From the NCBI GenBank assembly GCA_017406985.1, contig JAFQXL010000004.1, positions 59,708 through 123,707 on the forward strand: 64,000 nucleotides of DNA, in the 5' to 3' direction. This DNA is from Candidatus Saccharimonadota bacterium (GTDB taxonomy: Bacteria; Patescibacteriota; Saccharimonadia; Saccharimonadales; Saccharimonadaceae). The notes below the pieces were generated by a model. The model was not told where the DNA came from, made no database searches, and was given only the letters and a program-made list of their open reading frames with translations. Below are positions 1,178 through 63,175 of the stretch, one piece after another (position 1 is the first letter of the stretch; the number at the start of each line of letters is the position of its first letter). The position numbers and the translations under genes are program-made.

Positions 1178-1286
1178 TTTTTTATTTTGCGTTTTTAAGA
1201 AGAAAAGGCGTCTATCCGAACGCGGAAAAACATCGCGAAATCCAGAAGCTCTCGGAAGCAAAATTCGAAATATGAATCTTAAAGAG

Positions 1287-1314
1287 AAAAGACCGCGAAA
1301 AAGCGGTCTTTTTT
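1287..1314 (+). terminator. Intrinsic terminator after the tRNA pair
   Basis: aaaagaccgc-gaaaaa-gcggtctttt hairpin plus T-run. Confidence 0.7.
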
Positions 1315-1324
1315 AAAAAAGCTC

Positions 1325-1353
1325 TTTACAACAAAAGAATTTATGCTTATAAT
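1325..1353 (+). promoter_or_regulatory. sigma70 promoter upstream of the DGR target leader
   Basis: TTTACA(1325-1330)-17 nt-TATAAT(1348-1353). Confidence 0.6.
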
Positions 1354-1358
1354 GGAAT

Positions 1359-1609
1359 TGCAACAACATTTACATAAACGACGTGTTTATTTGATACCTT
1401 GTTTTAGGTATCAGGCAATACGACAGGTTAACGAATATTGCGCAGACATCGGCGTCACGAGAACCCGATAAAGTTCAATATTCGTTAACACGTCTATTGT
1501 TATGTAGATACGGTTGTTGCACTCGTGACGCCGTATTTGTTTACGGGGGATGTTCGTGGAAAGGCTTTCTCCTCTAAACAAACAACACTCATCTAAGGCG
1601 ACGTCACGA
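1359..1609 (+). ncRNA. Candidate structured 5' leader with pseudoknot (unknown family)
   Basis: Nested stems 1359-1387/1487-1521, 1392-1399/1406-1413 and 1427-1440/1476-1489 (perfect 14 bp); loop 1451-1461 is the exact complement of 1522-1532. Confidence 0.55.
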
Positions 1610-1639
1610 CCAAACATAAAATAAGGAGGTAAACTTAAA

Positions 1640-3343
1640 ATGGGTCGGGTGACTACAAAAACTAAACGGAGCGTGGATATTCTGACGATAGTCGGTGTCT
1701 TCTCCGGATTTTTATTATTAACATTATTAGCTGTGTATCTACACTCGCCGGTAATAAAAACCAGCGCGACAGACGAGGCTTCGAGCGCTTCGGTCTATGT
1801 CGAGCCGGTGGCGAGTATCTCGGTTGATCCAACGGTAAGTCTAGACATTACGCCGTCCGGAACGGGCGGAGTTGCCGATTCGGAACAACTCGACGTTAAA
1901 GTTATGACAAACGCGGAAGTCGGCTATGTTCTAAAGATGGCGGCGGAAGGAAGCTCGGCGGAAATGACCAGTCGAACTTCGAGCGATACAATTACTTCGG
2001 CCTTTACAGGCGGACTAACGCTCGAGAATATGTCGCCGAATACTTGGGGGTATTCGACTGATAACTCGACGTTCTATAAAGTTCCAGTAACTGGTAGCGA
2101 AGTTACGCTTGCTTCTCCAAGTAGCTCGACCGCGGAAGCATGGGAAACAACAACGATTTATTTCGGCGCGAAAGTCGACTCTTCGACCGAAGCCGGTTCT
2201 TATTCGAAGAACGTTGTCTTTACCGCAGTCGCGAACCAAAGACCACGAACTTTCTATGATATTACTTATATGCATGAGATGTCCTCGGCTATTTGTTCGA
2301 ACACCCCGACCGCTTCGAGCTATAGCGTAACTGCGACAACTCCAAACAATACCCTCGCAGAAGCGAAGACCGGAAACTATATCGCCCAGACGACTTTAAT
2401 CGACTATCGCGATATGAAGAGTTACCTTGTTCGTAAATATGCCAACGGCGAATGTTGGATGGCGCAGAACCTCGAGCATGATTTCTATTCGGCGGGAGAC
2501 TCTGTTGCGGACGGTTCTAGTAACACTGGAACTTATGCGACGACTTCAACCGGAATTAATACCTCCGCTAAGACAAACGCTGCTTCGACGCTCGGTTCGA
2601 ACAACTTTAGCAAATGGGTAAGTTATTCCGATATTAATAACGAAACCGCCTTTACGGCTTCTACGAACGCTTATGGCGCGGGTAAGTTTTACGCAACTCA
2701 GAACTTCTCTGGAAGCTCATATGGTTGGGCAGATAACGGAACCGACGGCGCGAGAAGCTATTCGACGAACGCGGCGGGCGCGGCGAACTATATTACAAAG
2801 ACTGGCTCGACGGCAGGTGACGGTTATTATACCTTCCAAGAATCGACAACTGGACAACCATATCAGAGAGTTGGTAACTATTATAACTTCGCAGCGGCGA
2901 AAGCCGGTTATCTCGGAACCGCAACTGGCGGTGATGACTCAAGCTCGACTTCGAGCACAACTGAAGTTCCTGATAACTCGATTTGTCCTCGTCACTGGAC
3001 TCTTCCGAAGAGCGGAACACACCTCGCTGGAACCGCTAAGTCCTTTGATAACCTAATTCGTCTTTACTATGGCGCAGACTGGACTAACGGCGCAAATAAT
3101 ACTACACTTTATAACTTCTTAAATGGAGCGCCGCTCGATTTCTGGCGTGCCGGCTTCTACTATCGTAGTTACGGTACGGTCGTCGATCGTACTACCAATG
3201 GCGGCTGGTGGTCTCGTAATGCCTCTTCTACCGCGGGTGCTAACGCCTTGGGTACCCGCATCAATAGTAATACGGGCTACGTCAATGCGCAGTATAGCTA
3301 CTACCGAGGCTACGGCTTGCCTATCCGTTGCGTAGTCCGCTAG
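1640..3343 (+). CDS. DGR target protein: membrane-anchored surface protein with Ig-like stalk and C-terminal Fib_succ_major/CLec-type domain
   Basis: N-terminal hydrophobic segment; 'CWMAQNL', 'GNYYNFAAA', 'ICPRHWTLP' and terminal 'PIRCV' motifs; C-terminus encoded by the VR; SD aaggagg. Confidence 0.85.
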   Translation: MGRVTTKTKRSVDILTIVGVFSGFLLLTLLAVYLHSPVIKTSATDEASSASVYVEPVASISVDPTVSLDITPSGTGGVADSEQLDVKVMTNAEVGYVLKMAAEGSSAEMTSRTSSDTITSAFTGGLTLENMSPNTWGYSTDNSTFYKVPVTGSEVTLASPSSSTAEAWETTTIYFGAKVDSSTEAGSYSKNVVFTAVANQRPRTFYDITYMHEMSSAICSNTPTASSYSVTATTPNNTLAEAKTGNYIAQTTLIDYRDMKSYLVRKYANGECWMAQNLEHDFYSAGDSVADGSSNTGTYATTSTGINTSAKTNAASTLGSNNFSKWVSYSDINNETAFTASTNAYGAGKFYATQNFSGSSYGWADNGTDGARSYSTNAAGAANYITKTGSTAGDGYYTFQESTTGQPYQRVGNYYNFAAAKAGYLGTATGGDDSSSTSSTTEVPDNSICPRHWTLPKSGTHLAGTAKSFDNLIRLYYGADWTNGANNTTLYNFLNGAPLDFWRAGFYYRSYGTVVDRTTNGGWWSRNASSTAGANALGTRINSNTGYVNAQYSYYRGYGLPIRCVVR

Positions 3344-3383
3344 GTCGTCTCCATCGTAGTTTTCCGCTACCAGCAGCTCGCGT
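3139..3383 (+). repeat. DGR variable repeat (VR), including 40 nt past the stop codon
   Basis: 245-bp ungapped match to the reverse complement of 5451-5695; 24 mismatches, 22 at TR adenines. Confidence 0.95.
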
Positions 3384-3432
3384 GAAAACGGAAAAAGGGC
3401 CGAAAAAAGTGGATTAAAACAGAGGAGATAAA

Positions 3433-4269
3433 ATGACGCTAGTCAACGAAAAGAAACCGGATAAGCTCGGAGCGAAACAAATGGTTCGCTCCGAGCGCGA
3501 GCGCTATCGGAAAATTAAAGCTACGATCTATGAAAAAGAACTGACGAACGATCAGCACGTATATGTTTATCGTTCGTCGAAAGAATGGTGGAAAGTCGGG
3601 GGAAACTCGGCGCTCTACTATAAATATATCCTCGGCCCGAGGCTGAAGGTTGCGATAAACCTGAAGCGGGACGAGGATCATTATTCTACCTTCAACTTTG
3701 GGGTTGTCTCGATTCGGGACATAAAAAGTTTCAAAGAGAGAATGAAGAAAGCGGGGATGGTTCCCGGGCCGGAAAACGATAACGCGATAAAGTTTTCGTT
3801 CAAGGAAAAAATTAGCCTCTCGACAATCGACGCAATCAAAGAAGATGTCGAGTTCCAGCACGAGCGGATAAACCGGCTGGTCGAGACGAGGAAGATTGCG
3901 CCGGACATGTTCGTCCTGATTCGCCAGTTCATGAGCGAATTTTGGCACTATTCAAAAAGATATAATAAATATGAAGCGCGGAAAACAATCACGAGCGAAG
4001 TTGTCGTCGAGATGATGAAAATGAAGCGGGCTTACGCCCACATGGCGAACGGAGATGTCGAAATTTTGGACGGGATGCTTGAGATAAAAAGTTGCGCCGA
4101 TTCCCTAATGTCGGATATTTCGTTTCTCGAAGAAGTAAAAGAAATGGGGTTCGACAAGGCGATGAAACTCAGTATGCACCTCGGAGATATAAAGCGAATT
4201 GTTAACCGCGAACTAAAAAAGGTGGTAAAAGAAAATGAGCGGATTAATTCTGACGGAAGATCGGAGTAG
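3433..4269 (+). CDS. DGR accessory protein: putative MutS-domain-I-like N-terminus fused to an Avd-like four-helix bundle
   Basis: Sits between VR and RT and overlaps the RT start by 35 nt; N-terminal pattern resembles MutS domain I; C-terminal ~115 aa helical and Avd-like (judged by eye). Confidence 0.65.
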   Translation: MTLVNEKKPDKLGAKQMVRSERERYRKIKATIYEKELTNDQHVYVYRSSKEWWKVGGNSALYYKYILGPRLKVAINLKRDEDHYSTFNFGVVSIRDIKSFKERMKKAGMVPGPENDNAIKFSFKEKISLSTIDAIKEDVEFQHERINRLVETRKIAPDMFVLIRQFMSEFWHYSKRYNKYEARKTITSEVVVEMMKMKRAYAHMANGDVEILDGMLEIKSCADSLMSDISFLEEVKEMGFDKAMKLSMHLGDIKRIVNRELKKVVKENERINSDGRSE

Positions 4270-5368
4270 GTTTTTTGACTATCTCGAACAGATGCTCTGG
4301 AGGGCGTATTATTGCGCGAGAAAGGGTAAGCGGACGACCGAAGACGAACATAAGTTCGAGATAAACGCGGCGGAGAATATACACCAGCTCGCAATCGACA
4401 TCATGACGCGAAACTATCGCCCGACGGTCGGGATTGCGTTTATAACGAAAGAGCCGGTAATCCGAGAGATTTTCGCGGCGCCGTTTCGAGACCGCGTCGT
4501 TCACCACGTTTTATTTAACGCCTGTAGCGGATGGTGGGACAGGCGACTTATCTATGATTCTTATTCTTGTCGCGTCAATAAGGGGACGCATTTCGGGATT
4601 AGGCGATTACACCACCACATGCAGGCTTGTTCGGAAAACTTTACTGTTCCCTGTACGATTGTTAAATTAGATATACAGGGATTTTTTATGAGCCTAGATA
4701 GAGAGAAGCTACTTAAACGGATTCTCTGGGGGCTAGACCAGCAGTTTAAAGGAAATTATAACGAGCTTTACCACGTTTTAAAGTTTCTTTGGACTTCGGT
4801 CATTATGGACGACCCGGTTCAAGGAGTTCGGCTCCGCGGAAAGCGGTCAGATTGGGACCAGTTACCGACAAATAAGAGCCTGTTTAATCAGCCGGAGGGC
4901 GTCGGAATCGTGATCGGGAACTTAACTTCTCAGCTCGCTTCGAATATTTTTCTCGACCCGCTCGATAGATATGTTATTTCGGATTTAGGGCTTAAACATT
5001 ATGGGCGATATGTCGACGATTTTTATTTTATCGTTCCGGATTCGGAGAAAGAATATGCGCTCGCTTGTATCGATACGATTTCGGAGTTTCTGTCGAAGCT
5101 CGGACTAACTCTACATCCGAAGAAACATTATATCCAGCCGATTTCACACGGCGTGCCGTTTCTCGGGGCGGTCGTTTATCCGCATTGTACCGTCCCTGGG
5201 AAGAGGATAAAGAAAGAGTTTATTCGGGCGGCTTATGAGTTTGCGTCGGGGTATGAGAGTATTGAGTCTTTGATTTCTTATATGGGAATGTTGTCGAATT
5301 TCCAGAGTGCGAAGTTCGAGAAAGAAGTGTTCGAGAGTTTAGGGTGGGATTATTATAGTAAGTTGTAG
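4235..5368 (+). CDS. DGR reverse transcriptase
   Basis: Motifs 'FRDRVVHH', 'KLDIQGFF', 'GIVIGNLTSQLASNIFL' and catalytic 'YGRYVDDF'; 377 aa with no maturase or endonuclease domain. Confidence 0.95.
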   Translation: MSGLILTEDRSRFFDYLEQMLWRAYYCARKGKRTTEDEHKFEINAAENIHQLAIDIMTRNYRPTVGIAFITKEPVIREIFAAPFRDRVVHHVLFNACSGWWDRRLIYDSYSCRVNKGTHFGIRRLHHHMQACSENFTVPCTIVKLDIQGFFMSLDREKLLKRILWGLDQQFKGNYNELYHVLKFLWTSVIMDDPVQGVRLRGKRSDWDQLPTNKSLFNQPEGVGIVIGNLTSQLASNIFLDPLDRYVISDLGLKHYGRYVDDFYFIVPDSEKEYALACIDTISEFLSKLGLTLHPKKHYIQPISHGVPFLGAVVYPHCTVPGKRIKKEFIRAAYEFASGYESIESLISYMGMLSNFQSAKFEKEVFESLGWDYYSKL

Positions 5369-5394
5369 GGGGCGTTTTTTATGCGCTTTTAGAA

Positions 5395-5440
5395 AAAACG
5401 TAGTGCTTAAGTTTCTTGCGATTCTTAAACACTACGTTTT
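5395..5440. terminator. Bidirectional hairpin between the RT 3' end and the TR 3' end
   Basis: aaaacgtagtg-c-ttaag (5395-5411) pairs with cttaa-a-cactacgtttt (5424-5440); A/T runs on both sides. Confidence 0.65.
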
Positions 5441-5450
5441 ATTTTGTTTA

Positions 5451-5695
5451 ACGCGAGCTGCTGGTAGCGGAAAACTACGATGGAGACGACCTAGCGGACT
5501 ACGCAACGGATAGAAAAGCCGTTGCCTCGGTTGTTGCTATTCTGCGCATTGACGTTGCCCGTATTACTATTGATGTTGGTATTCAAGTTGTTAGCATTCG
5601 TGGTAGAAGAGGCATTACGAGACCACCAGTTGCCATTGGTAGTACGATTGATGACCGTACCGTTACTACGATTGTAGTTGCCGGCACGCCAGAAA
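5451..5695 (-). repeat. DGR template repeat (TR), inverted relative to VR and RT
   Basis: Minus-strand copy carries 20 in-frame AAY codons where VR has substituted codons. Confidence 0.95.
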
Positions 5696-6109
5696 AATCC
5701 ACCGCCAAAGAACCGGTTAGTGCAAATGGCTCGAGCCTTATTCTAACGAGCCAAAACTCAGAAGAACAAGAGACCAAAGAGCTGCTTCTTCCCCGGACAC
5801 CCCGTAAAGCGTCCGGGTTCCGACCGGTTCGACTTTTACGTCGTTATCTGCGACTTTTTGAGTCGCTTTTGCGTCGGCTAGACTTCGCGAAAATGAAGTG
5901 AGCTCTCCAGCTCGCGTGGGGACAGCGTAGATTTCAAGTGGATAAGATACGATATTCCCGTAAGGTCCCTTGCACTTTTAAACGCTACGGATATTCCAGC
6001 TTATCATTTAACTTTCCACCTAGCTTCACATCCCCTAGTTATATTATAATGCTTATGGTTTTTTTGTGAGGTTTTGTGTAATATAGGATATTATGTTATA
6101 ATAATTCTA

Positions 6110-59337: not shown

Positions 59338-59919
59338 ATGAAAGAAATTAAATATAATTCCAGTAAAAGGACACACGAACGGATTAAACGAACGTTCGCG
59401 GAGCTTTTGTCCGAGAAAAAGACCGTTAATAATATTACGGTTGCGGAGCTAGCAAAACGGGCGGAGATAACGCGCGGAACGTTTTATGCTCATTTTAATA
59501 ATATTAAAGAGGTCTCGGAAGAAGTTGAAAAAGAAGTCGTCGAGCGCCTCCAAGTTTCGAATAATAAAATAGAGAATATCGAAGACTTTCCGATTTTTCT
59601 TCATGAGTTTTTCCAGTTTTTAGCAGAAAACGAAGAGCTTTATCGCCAGATTCTATCGAGCGAAGCGCCGATGGCTTTTGTTAATCGTCTAAACCTCCAG
59701 ATTACGCAAGCGGCGAGGGATGCGCTTAACGCAAACTCCTTTAAACACCCGATTCAAGAACTCGACGTCATGTTCTATATCGACGGAGCGACTTATATGA
59801 TTTTGAAATATTTTCGCGGGGAGATTTCGATGTCTCTTAATGAGATTGAGTGGTATTTAAAGGAGCGCGCGTTTGAGATGTTTCTTAAGGATTTTTCGAC
59901 GGAAACTCCGGAGGAATAA
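59338..59919 (+). CDS. TetR/AcrR-family regulator
   Basis: HTH 'ITVAELAKRAEITRGTFYAHF'; divergent from the MMPL gene. Confidence 0.92.
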   Translation: MKEIKYNSSKRTHERIKRTFAELLSEKKTVNNITVAELAKRAEITRGTFYAHFNNIKEVSEEVEKEVVERLQVSNNKIENIEDFPIFLHEFFQFLAENEELYRQILSSEAPMAFVNRLNLQITQAARDALNANSFKHPIQELDVMFYIDGATYMILKYFRGEISMSLNEIEWYLKERAFEMFLKDFSTETPEE

Positions 59920-61536: not shown

Positions 61537-62498
61537 TTAATTTTTTGAATTGGCATTGGGTGGAGATCGGTATCGCCATAAAGGATACCGTTTTTTGCGC
61601 CGAACTTTGAGACGACGGAAGTCGAGTTAGCGGAGCCGAAGATTAGCGCATCTTTAAAGCTTTTTCCGTTAGCTAGCGCTGCGAGGAAGCCAGAGCCAAA
61701 ACCATCTCCCGCGCCGGTCGTATCTCGAACCGGTAAGTCTTCATAAATCCCGAAACGATAAGTTTCTTCTCCATTAGTCGCGATAGCGCCCATCGCGCCA
61801 GTCGTAATAATAACAGTTTTAACGTAGTTTTTTAAATGAGAAAGTAGCTCTTCGAGGATTTTTCCAGGGACGATTTCCGCCGCTTCGACTTTATTCACGA
61901 GTAGGACATCGACATCTTCAAGCAGTCCGAGCAATTTCTTCTTTTCTTTTAGTTCGAGCTTCCCTGGATTAAACATAATTTTACAGCCGATTTCTTTTGC
62001 TTTCTCGAAGAATCGAAGGAGCGTGTCCATATCTCCGCGAAGCGACGTAACATAGAGCCAGTCCGGCTTAATTAAGTCGAGGTCGTCCTCGTTTAGATTA
62101 TCGAAACGCGCCGAAGCGCCGCGACAGGTCAAAATAGTACGCTCGCCGGATTTTGTGTCAAGAAGAATAACCGAAACGCCGGTTTTAATATTTTTAGGAT
62201 GGACAATATAGCTGGTGTCGATTCCCTCGTCGTCGAGCAGAGCTTCGACCGCTTGTCCCGCCGGATCGGTTCCGACGTTCCCGAGAAAGACAACTTCATG
62301 TCCAGAGCGTGCAAAAGTAACCGCGGAGTTAGTTCCGCCGCCACCAACTTCGAAAGAAATCTTATCAATATCGACTTTCGAGCCGACGTCGATTTGTCCT
62401 AATTTTTCGACATTTCCGACTTTAGAGCTAATAAAATCGTCATGGTCGATTAGATAAATGTCTTGAAGAGCGGAGCCGAGAGAAACAATTCTTGCCAT
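61533..62498 (-). CDS. PfkB-family carbohydrate kinase
   Basis: 'GGGGTNSA', 'DTTGAGDGF'. Confidence 0.92.
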   Translation of the reverse strand: MARIVSLGSALQDIYLIDHDDFISSKVGNVEKLGQIDVGSKVDIDKISFEVGGGGTNSAVTFARSGHEVVFLGNVGTDPAGQAVEALLDDEGIDTSYIVHPKNIKTGVSVILLDTKSGERTILTCRGASARFDNLNEDDLDLIKPDWLYVTSLRGDMDTLLRFFEKAKEIGCKIMFNPGKLELKEKKKLLGLLEDVDVLLVNKVEAAEIVPGKILEELLSHLKNYVKTVIITTGAMGAIATNGEETYRFGIYEDLPVRDTTGAGDGFGSGFLAALANGKSFKDALIFGSANSTSVVSKFGAKNGILYGDTDLHPMPIQKIN

Positions 62499-63175
62499 TA
62501 GATTAAAACTCCTCGCTGTGTCGCTTCTTCAGATAAATCTTCAAAAGCTTTTTTCGGATCTTCGGCCTTAATAATCGCCGAACCAACGTTTAAAATATTA
62601 ATGTCGGAATGAGCCAGAGCGCGAACATTCGTCATATCAACTCCGCCGTCCCAGCCAATCTCGACTTCCGGTTTTATCGCGCGGACAAGTTTAACTTTTT
62701 CAATCTGAAGTAAGTCCGCCTCGCCACCGTTTTTTCCGAGCGCACCGGCAAAAATCATAACGTGATCCGCCGCTTCGATATATTGTTTAACGTCGCCCGG
62801 ATAAGTTCTTTGGAGAAGAGCGACGCCGGCTTTAATTCCCGCCGCCTTAAGCTGATCGAAAAAAGGTAAAAGATTTTCGGTCGCTTCGGCGTGAAAAATA
62901 CAGAGATTCGGTTTTAATCTTAAGATATGTTGGATATGTTCGCTCGGGCGCGCCACCATCATATGCATATCGACTAAAATTCCCTGCGGGAGAGCAGTAA
63001 TCGCGGCTTCGGAAATCGTTGTTTGAGGAACAAAACTACCGTCGACAACATCGATTTGCATTCGTTTCGCGAAAGTCGGATAAAGCCCGATAAACTTTGT
63101 AAACTCCGTTGGATCGGAAGTAAGAAGAGTTGGCGAGATTATGACATCGCTTGGGTCGACAGCACTAAAATCCAT
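62498..63175 (-). CDS. rpe: Ribulose-phosphate 3-epimerase
   Basis: 'IDVVDGSFVP', 'DMHMMV', 'WDGGV', 'VGSAI'. Confidence 0.88.
   Translation of the reverse strand: MDFSAVDPSDVIISPTLLTSDPTEFTKFIGLYPTFAKRMQIDVVDGSFVPQTTISEAAITALPQGILVDMHMMVARPSEHIQHILRLKPNLCIFHAEATENLLPFFDQLKAAGIKAGVALLQRTYPGDVKQYIEAADHVMIFAGALGKNGGEADLLQIEKVKLVRAIKPEVEIGWDGGVDMTNVRALAHSDINILNVGSAIIKAEDPKKAFEDLSEEATQRGVLI

Follow-up and report, generated by a model that had tools for sequence, protein, structure and literature searches.

A structured leader RNA precedes the gene of a membrane-anchored surface protein in Candidatus Saccharimonadota bacterium (assembly GCA_017406985.1, contig JAFQXL010000004.1). The gene is the target of a diversity-generating retroelement (DGR) and lies within the 64,000 nucleotides (nt) analysed here, positions 59,708 to 123,707 of the contig, which we call the window and number from its first letter. 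We are highly confident that this is a real, conserved and cis-linked structured leader RNA. Judged by covariance searches, it is a member of an RNA family not described before, one that is restricted to a single family of Saccharibacteria, and its conservation and covariation over about 48 homologues argue that the pattern is not due to chance. Its central feature is a strand, B, that can pair either with an upstream strand A in a long-range pseudoknot or with a downstream strand C in a hairpin, and that is followed by a nearly invariant U tract. An earlier note on this DNA had read the region, upstream of the DGR target gene, as a novel switch-like cis-regulator or an independent non-coding RNA that controls adhesin expression. 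An undescribed cis-acting leader is indeed found, although what it does (switch, attenuator or stabiliser) can be put only as a graded proposal. The gene is a DGR target as claimed, whereas the element is not specific to DGRs and appears as a leader of surface-protein genes throughout the family. The product is predicted to be a membrane-anchored surface protein, for which adhesin is a putative label.

The leader (Table 1) follows a sigma-70-type promoter that stands where the earlier note had placed it and matches the consensus at 11 of 12 positions. The 5′ strand of the outer helix P1 (duplex energy −31 kcal/mol) begins 5-6 nt past the −10 box and thus at or adjoining the 5′ end of the transcript. 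The side hairpin P2 and the hairpin P3 follow, and the large apical region of P3 holds an A-rich linker, a weak helix P4 and strand A. The core of strand A, GGCGTCACGAG (1451-1461), is perfectly complementary to positions 1522-1532 in strand B, and the duplex A:B has an energy of −25 kcal/mol. Strand C carries a further copy of CGTCACGA (1602-1609) that can compete for B (B:C, −16.5 kcal/mol, p = 0.03); this 8-mer occurs three times in the 64-kb window, all less than 160 nt apart and in the leader. The outer helix, the side hairpin, the perfect 14-bp inner stem, the complementary loop, the competing copy and a further hairpin (P6) had all been called in the earlier note and are all present. 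What it had missed is the strictly conserved U tract after B, which gives A:B the look of a terminator stem. The 291-nt leader folds at −91.1 kcal/mol against −63 ± 4.6 kcal/mol for shuffled sequences (z = −6.1; none of 200 shuffles was as good). The opposite strand folds equally well, so that assignment of the strand required other evidence, and the exact A-B-C triple is by itself only mildly unusual, with three such triples on the + strand of the window. A scan with Rfam 15 gave no match at E ≤ 1 within 1320-1640, in agreement with the earlier statement that no known riboswitch could be recognised, nor in six other members apart from one tRNA elsewhere in a locus. No earlier description of the leader family was found in the literature.

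A protein search with the target returned eight close homologues of 96-44% identity, whose contigs were examined. Five lineages (the window and L046/47; L048 and L062; L049; L050; L051), whose target proteins are 96-58% identical, have retained an extended region before the gene, and all five carry promoter, P1, P3, A, B, U tract and C in a common order. The upstream gene differs in each: tRNA-Thr, DegV, MMPL, an exonuclease and one unidentified gene. Pairing in P1 (−29 to −39 kcal/mol across lineages) is kept by wholesale replacement of its sequence, which reads GCAACAAC/GUUGUUGC in the window and GCAAUAAC/GUUAUUGC, GUACAAAC/GUUUGUAC and GUAGUAAAAAA/UUUUUUACUAC in other lineages. In L049 strand B has changed from CUCGUGACGCC to CUCGUAGCGCC (G to A), and A has become GGCGUUACGAG and C CGUUACGA (both C to U). 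Because A and C both changed along with B, this co-change argues directly that both pairings of B are under selection. None of the leader parts was found at two further homologues (L052 and L055). A homologue of 45% identity (L053, 4768-5000) has a reduced leader that lacks P1, P3 and A: B (CUCGUGAUGCC) comes immediately after the promoter and is itself followed by a U-rich tract and C (GGCGUCAC). The B:C hairpin may work alone there; alternatively it may represent what is left of the element, or its ancestral core. Simpler searches added little. BLASTN of the leader against its own genome and 60 relatives gave only short chance matches because the family is too diverged for a DNA search. A scan for the pattern CTCGTNNNGCCGTATTTGTTT over genome and metagenome contigs gave 33 loci, of which one is real (L062, from a rumen Saccharibacteria metagenome-assembled genome) and the rest are chance, and a pattern scan over 401 genomes of the family recovered the window's own copy only. 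No additional close homologues came from a protein search that used the most diverged of the leader-bearing targets.

The wider family was reached with covariance models. A first model of the core (R1; P3, A, the 3′ strand of P1, B and the U tract), built from the five lineages, found full-length relatives of the leader in 24 of 121 genomes from the window's genus, and a single genome may hold as many as seven copies (seven in G019, six in G529 and four in G021). A second model (R2), rebuilt from 38 sequences, had matches in 28 of the 301 family genomes searched; these belong to 17 of 95 genera, 16 of them beyond the genus of the window. Seven copies from other genera were inspected by eye and all have a promoter, P1, the A:B complement and the U tract. 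At E ≤ 1e-4 an order-level sample of 251 genomes, about 240 of which are from other families, yielded the copy of the window alone with R2, a search that doubles as a control of specificity. The window's own genome has a single leader copy; a weak second model match at 62406-62529 is spurious, as the site falls within the coding sequence of a kinase on the opposite strand. Among the copies of G019, G529 and G021 (L093, L106-L119) strands A and B are nearly identical within one genome (GGCAUCAUGAGG / CCUCGUGGUGCC) and the P1 and P3 sequences are all different, which could reflect a common trans-acting partner, concerted evolution or strong constraint on both strands. One copy, L127 (1501-1700), has no open reading frame (ORF) after the leader; a terminator hairpin of canonical form, AAAAAUCCGAGAG...CUCUCGGAUUUU, stands there instead. 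The core of L127 also gives a score on the opposite strand, and this copy could be a stand-alone version of the RNA or a decayed locus.

Covariation was counted on an alignment of 38 sequences. In P3 every one of the 13 pairs has changed on both sides and 89% of the cells are paired, a value that favours P3 since the alignment was fitted to it. A:B was absent from the search model and its covariation is therefore an independent test: 96.8% of its cells are paired, and 7 of 13 pairs have compensatory changes on both sides (GGCG/CGCC, GGCA/UGCC and GGUG/CACC are examples). These measures were not reached in any of 500 shuffles, and when the register is shifted by 1-3 columns only 33-47% of cells pair. 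Thus both conservation and covariation were found in the collected upstream regions of homologues, which bears out the pseudoknot and the competing pairing put forward in the earlier note. The A:B cells include 59 G·U pairs and almost no A·C, and since a G·U pair is an A·C mismatch on the other strand, this argues that selection acts on RNA of the sense strand, as opposed to DNA repeats or an antisense transcript. P1 is a helix of 12-17 bp that links the strand adjoining B to a strand near the −10 box. Its 5′ strand begins 2-7 nt after a −10-like box in at least 31 of 48 members, its pairing is significant against shuffles in 43 of 48 with a different sequence in each, and the spacing from B to P1 is 0-2 nt across members. 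Other parts are less constant. P2 is variable or missing in other lineages, about one third of members lacking it. P4 (AUCGG/CCGAU) is paired in about 52% across the family and is probably not a general feature, so that A would sit in a large P3 loop with the A-rich linker on its 5′ side. The apical GUGGAAAGGC of P6 is kept in four of five lineages of the window's clade (the window, L048, L049 and L050) and is missing from the rest of the family. This loop was considered as a CsrA site and ruled out, as PF02599 (CsrA) was not found in the 98%-complete genome, in which positive controls were detected.

The nine positions after A:B read UUUUUGUUU in the family; positions 3-5 are U in 37-38 of the 38 sequences, and C occurs at none of the nine. 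An A-rich flank 5′ of A is able to pair with the U tract. With a GC-rich A:B stem of 12-13 bp (median −22.7 kcal/mol), a U tract directly 3′ and an A-rich flank 5′, the arrangement has the hallmarks of an intrinsic terminator. It is not a simple terminator hairpin with a short loop (about 3-8 nt), for the A and B arms are 55-80 nt apart and a scan for simple terminators made no call; these 55-80 nt are themselves paired in P3 and P1. Terminator-like sites number 43 in the genome against 27 ± 5.6 expected, and the organism therefore plausibly uses intrinsic termination.

The alternative pairing B:C reaches p < 0.05 in 24 of 37 members, with a median of −13.7 kcal/mol. In minimal members C lies 10-12 nt after B and the U tract forms the loop of the hairpin P5. 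Between the U tract and the Shine-Dalgarno sequence (SD), tetramers complementary to the latter (CUCC/CCUC) are present in 16 of 44 members against 6.5 ± 2.2 expected, mostly inside C. In the window, C can in addition pair with strand D, GGUCGGGUGAC (1643-1653), which spans codons 2-5; the C:D duplex (GUCACGACC with GGUCGGGUGAC) has an energy of −12.7 kcal/mol and p = 0.16. As a universal feature, C:D is a tentative candidate. In the five lineages the two global states are close in energy.

The leader is tightly linked to a particular class of genes. Of 48 copies, 44 have an SD and a same-strand ORF within about 30-145 nt downstream, and no promoter was seen in between. Among the 40 products of at least 45 amino acids, 34 have an N-terminal hydrophobic anchor. 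Several resemble the N-terminal region of the window's target, and others have Listeria-Bacteroides repeats or a domain of the fold class to which the DGR variable domain belongs (Fib_succ_major or Lcl_C). These associations suggest that the leader marks genes of membrane-anchored surface proteins generally, with the DGR targets as a subset. The gene in the window is a genuine DGR target, because its C-terminal variable region (VR, 3139-3387) matches an inverted template repeat (TR, 5447-5695) with adenine-specific differences and a reverse transcriptase (RT) is encoded at 4235-5368. The homologue of 58% identity, L051 (2443-5600), has a complete leader, but neither an RT nor a TR/VR repeat was found within 1 kb downstream, and the next gene is a TraG/DUF87-like ATPase on the opposite strand; L051 may be an orphan, remote or former DGR target.

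Taken together, the two pairings of B lead us to propose that the leader probably acts as an on/off switch. In the form that we would set out here, and to which we give an even chance, it is a bistable cis-acting leader in which A:B with the U tract is the off state and B:C the on state. Transcription would start a few nt before P1. Sequence, folding and covariation show that P1 pairs the 5′ end of the RNA with the strand adjoining B, that P3 displays A in a large loop, and that A pairs with B in a long-range pseudoknot of 12-13 bp. In this A:B state the GC-rich helix and the U tract would constitute an intrinsic terminator, with P1 and P3 as a scaffold that closes its 55-80-nt 'loop' and brings the loop strand A to B. 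B is the uninterrupted continuation of the P1 3′ strand, which allows A:B to stack on P1, and the 5′ end of the RNA would then lie buried at the nick where the two helices meet. Once transcription has read through, the freed C would mask the SD or the start region (codons 2-5 in the window; in other members C carries CUCC, CCUCC or CCUCAC that could serve for masking) and the gene would be off. In the B:C state A would be idle, the ribosome-binding site open and the gene on. A metabolite pocket is argued against because the junction is not conserved; as a trigger, a kinetic cue (the speed of RNA polymerase, or the supply of nucleoside triphosphates (NTPs) or Mg2+), a physical or thermal cue, or a shared trans-acting factor seems more likely.

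Several points weigh against this proposal. We know of no intrinsic terminator closed by a pseudoknot with a structured loop of 55-80 nt. In members without P2, P1 and P3 would form a near-continuous rod that must fold back for A:B to form, and in a check of this geometry the lengths of the P3-side and P1-side arms showed no correlation, both being narrow in range. C is downstream of the U tract and hence no co-transcriptional antiterminator, and a built-in antiterminator in the form of an upstream competitor for A was seen in 0 of 36 members. B:C is absent or weak in about one third of members. C:D has p = 0.03-0.3 per lineage and is individually weak (five full-leader lineages and L053), and with B blocked the initiation region is predicted to be only modestly less accessible (0.51, down from 0.58). 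A bolder variant, which is speculative and which we consider doubtful, is that of a pseudoknot-assembled attenuator of a new kind, whose scaffold of P1 and P3 would bury the 5′ end of the mRNA as well. The choice between termination and read-through would be kinetic, set for example by polymerase speed over the U tract and hence by the supply of host-derived nucleotides, and would amount to a regulon-wide switch. If this were correct, a leader present on up to seven surface-protein genes per genome, DGR-diversified ones included, would couple the display of attachment proteins to host-derived resources, and such an RNA switch would operate in bacteria with very few protein regulators.

A role without any switching has a minor but appreciable chance: the buried 5′ end would act constitutively as a stabiliser, shielding long-lived mRNAs of surface proteins from decay that depends on the 5′ end, and B:C would be incidental or a folding intermediate. 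This would suit the start of P1 within 2-7 nt of the −10 box and the 0-2 nt between B and P1, as well as the much greater strength of A:B (median −22.7 kcal/mol) than of B:C (−13.7 kcal/mol), the lack of B:C in about one third of members and the absence of a conserved candidate ligand site at the junction. Left unexplained, however, would be the near-invariant U tract right after A:B, the B-C complementarity in 24 of 37 members with C covarying with B in L049 and L051, and the enrichment of anti-SD motifs in C; moreover a simple 5′ hairpin suffices in known cases such as the ermC and aprE leaders. The terminator-like succession of A-rich tract, GC-rich helix and U tract could alternatively define the end of an independent small RNA of about 180 nt (1359-1542) that acts in trans, the downstream gene being expressed by read-through only, an explanation that we think unlikely. 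Its A loop might act on other copies of the leader or titrate a factor, and the near-identity of A and B among copies of one genome makes pairing in trans conceivable, while L127 offers a copy with no ORF behind it and a canonical terminator of its own. Yet an SD and a same-strand ORF follow 44 of 48 copies closely with no intervening promoter seen, B would occupy A in the terminated RNA, and the genome of the window has a single copy, so that regulation between copies is not a general role.

Mutually exclusive pairings that are both supported are a hallmark of riboswitches, and the succession of a structured domain, alternative pairings and a U tract would fit one, as would a pseudoknot whose 3′ strand overlaps the expression platform in the manner of the ZTP and fluoride riboswitches. 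A classical metabolite riboswitch, with P1, junction and P3 as an aptamer in which a ligand controls the docking of A:B, is nevertheless very unlikely in our view: the P1-P3 junction varies in sequence, length and number of branches with no conserved ligand-binding core, the conserved nucleotides are those of the switching strands and the U tract and form no pocket, the downstream genes encode surface proteins and not transporters or enzymes, and Rfam gave no match. The A and B inverted repeats adjoin a DGR target, and DNA hairpins assist DGR homing at the 3′ end of the VR, so that the A/B/C repeats might be thought of as recombination, cruciform or retrohoming signals, that is, as a DNA-level or DGR-specific element. 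This is effectively refuted by the 59 G·U cells with almost no A·C, which indicate selection on one RNA strand. The leader is also 1.5 kb upstream of the VR, and it precedes genes without a nearby RT or TR (L051 is one) and genes of other protein families. The 6S RNA, a single-copy rod with a central bubble and no link to an ORF, was rejected as an identity for the element, which has up to seven copies per genome, is linked to ORFs and gave no Rfam 6S match.

The proposed bistable leader shares features with several known systems. Like intrinsic terminators and the trp and pyr attenuators it has a GC-rich helix of 12-13 bp with a U tract after it and an A-rich stretch before it, and like the attenuators it lies between promoter and ORF and contains a strand, B, with two exclusive partners, comparable to attenuator regions 2 and 3. 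Unlike in intrinsic terminators, 55-80 nt separate the two arms and pair with strands further upstream, so that the helix is that of a pseudoknot and not of a hairpin; unlike in the trp and pyr attenuators, the alternative partner C comes after the U tract and there is no leader peptide. With the ZTP, fluoride, preQ1-II and SAM-II riboswitches it has in common that the loop of a hairpin binds a strand far to its 3′ side, that this strand also takes part in a downstream hairpin, and that the pseudoknot would therefore decide the fate of the platform. It differs from them in having no conserved ligand pocket, in the far greater length of its pseudoknot (12-13 bp) and in the position of its U tract after the pseudoknot helix instead of after the downstream hairpin, which reverses the polarity. 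A resemblance in topology may also be seen to the exoribonuclease-resistant RNAs (xrRNAs) of flaviviruses and to bacterial 5′ stabiliser hairpins, in that a helix P1 with the 5′ end, a junction, a loop pairing with a strand 3′ of P1, a further hairpin and a buried 5′ end recur, but the leader is about twice as large, has a much longer pseudoknot helix and starts at +1, with nothing upstream to protect. As a structured non-coding RNA of a DGR locus, the leader is comparable to the DGR RNA of Bordetella phage BPP-1 (avd 3′ end, TR and spacer). The DGR RNA is a template for cDNA, and in the window it is the separate TR transcript from the minus strand (5447-5695 and the upstream flank), whereas the leader has no TR or VR sequence and also occurs at non-DGR genes.

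Next to nothing is known of how Saccharibacteria and other ultrasmall episymbionts regulate their genes, and we found no description in the literature of a native structured regulatory RNA for them. The leader provides a concrete handle on the control of their variable surface, as DGR targets are thought to mediate attachment. Its architecture is unusual in that a pseudoknot helix adjoins a U tract and the 5′ end would be buried in the fold. If the termination reading is true, the leader would represent an intrinsic terminator with a pseudoknot as its closing helix, which is unfamiliar to us from described systems. The leader could also become a native part for the control of expression in the genetic systems for Saccharibacteria that are now in development.

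Table 1. Positions of the leader elements and of the adjoining features in the window.
Feature	Position	Strand	Remarks
Upstream terminator hairpin	1292-1315	+	GACCGC-GAAAAA-GCGGTC, then T6; read from the sequence
Sigma-70-type promoter	1325-1353	+	TTTACA 1325-1330, 17-nt spacer, TATAAT 1348-1353
P1, 5′ strand	1359-1387	+	UGCAACAAC 1359-1367, AUUUACAUAA 1368-1377, GACGUGUU 1380-1387
P2, side hairpin at junction	1392-1413	+	presence, number and sequence differ between members
P3 hairpin	1427-1489	+	perfect 14-bp stem, 1427-1440 with 1476-1489
P4 (weak)	AUCGG 1448-1452 with CCGAU 1465-1469	+	within the P3 apical region
Strand A (C-GGCGUCACGAG), in the P3 loop	1450-1461	+	5′ arm of the long-range pseudoknot A:B
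P1, 3′ strand	1487-1521	+	ends in GGUUGUUGCA (1512-1521), directly adjoining strand B
Strand B (CUCGUGACGCC-G)	1522-1533	+	partner A (pseudoknot) or C (hairpin P5)
U-rich tract UAUUUGUUU	1534-1542	+	directly 3′ of the A:B helix; family form UUUUUGUUU
P6 hairpin within the P5 loop	1543-1584	+	apical sequence GUGGAAAGGC 1556-1565
Strand C (GGCGACGUCACGACC)	1597-1611	+	core 1602-1609; with B forms hairpin P5; free C can pair with codons 2-5
Translation initiation region	1625-1653	+	SD GGAGG 1625-1629, ATG 1640-1642, strand D 1643-1653
Regulated gene, membrane-anchored surface protein, 567 amino acids	1640-3343	+	

The source genome has 731 kb, is of the Saccharibacteria type and is 98% complete. 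The terminator hairpin upstream of the leader has an identical counterpart 5′ of the leader in L046/L047, where it comes after the DegV gene, and is predicted to shield the leader promoter from the tRNA genes. It lies inside the block common to the window and L046, which starts at about 1278. The cassette (1278-5440) has the order terminator hairpin, promoter, leader, target, accessory gene and RT; it is flanked here by tRNA-Thr and queA and is found elsewhere after a DegV, MMPL or exonuclease gene. Because the whole cassette occurs in different neighbourhoods across lineages, the DGR and the leader appear to move or to be exchanged as one unit. Two small ORFs in the leader (1343-1471 on the + strand and 1411-1617 on the − strand) were rejected as genes: no SD precedes them, they either overlap the promoter or run antisense, and conservation in this region follows helices and not codons. 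On the minus strand, at 5395-6066, the TR is inverted relative to both the RT and the target, and it is seemingly transcribed from a promoter of its own with a −10 box near 6043-6048 and a GC-rich leader of about 340 nt. A bidirectional terminator at 5395-5440 is common to the TR transcript and the RT gene, and the inverted arrangement of the TR is also seen in L049 and L050.

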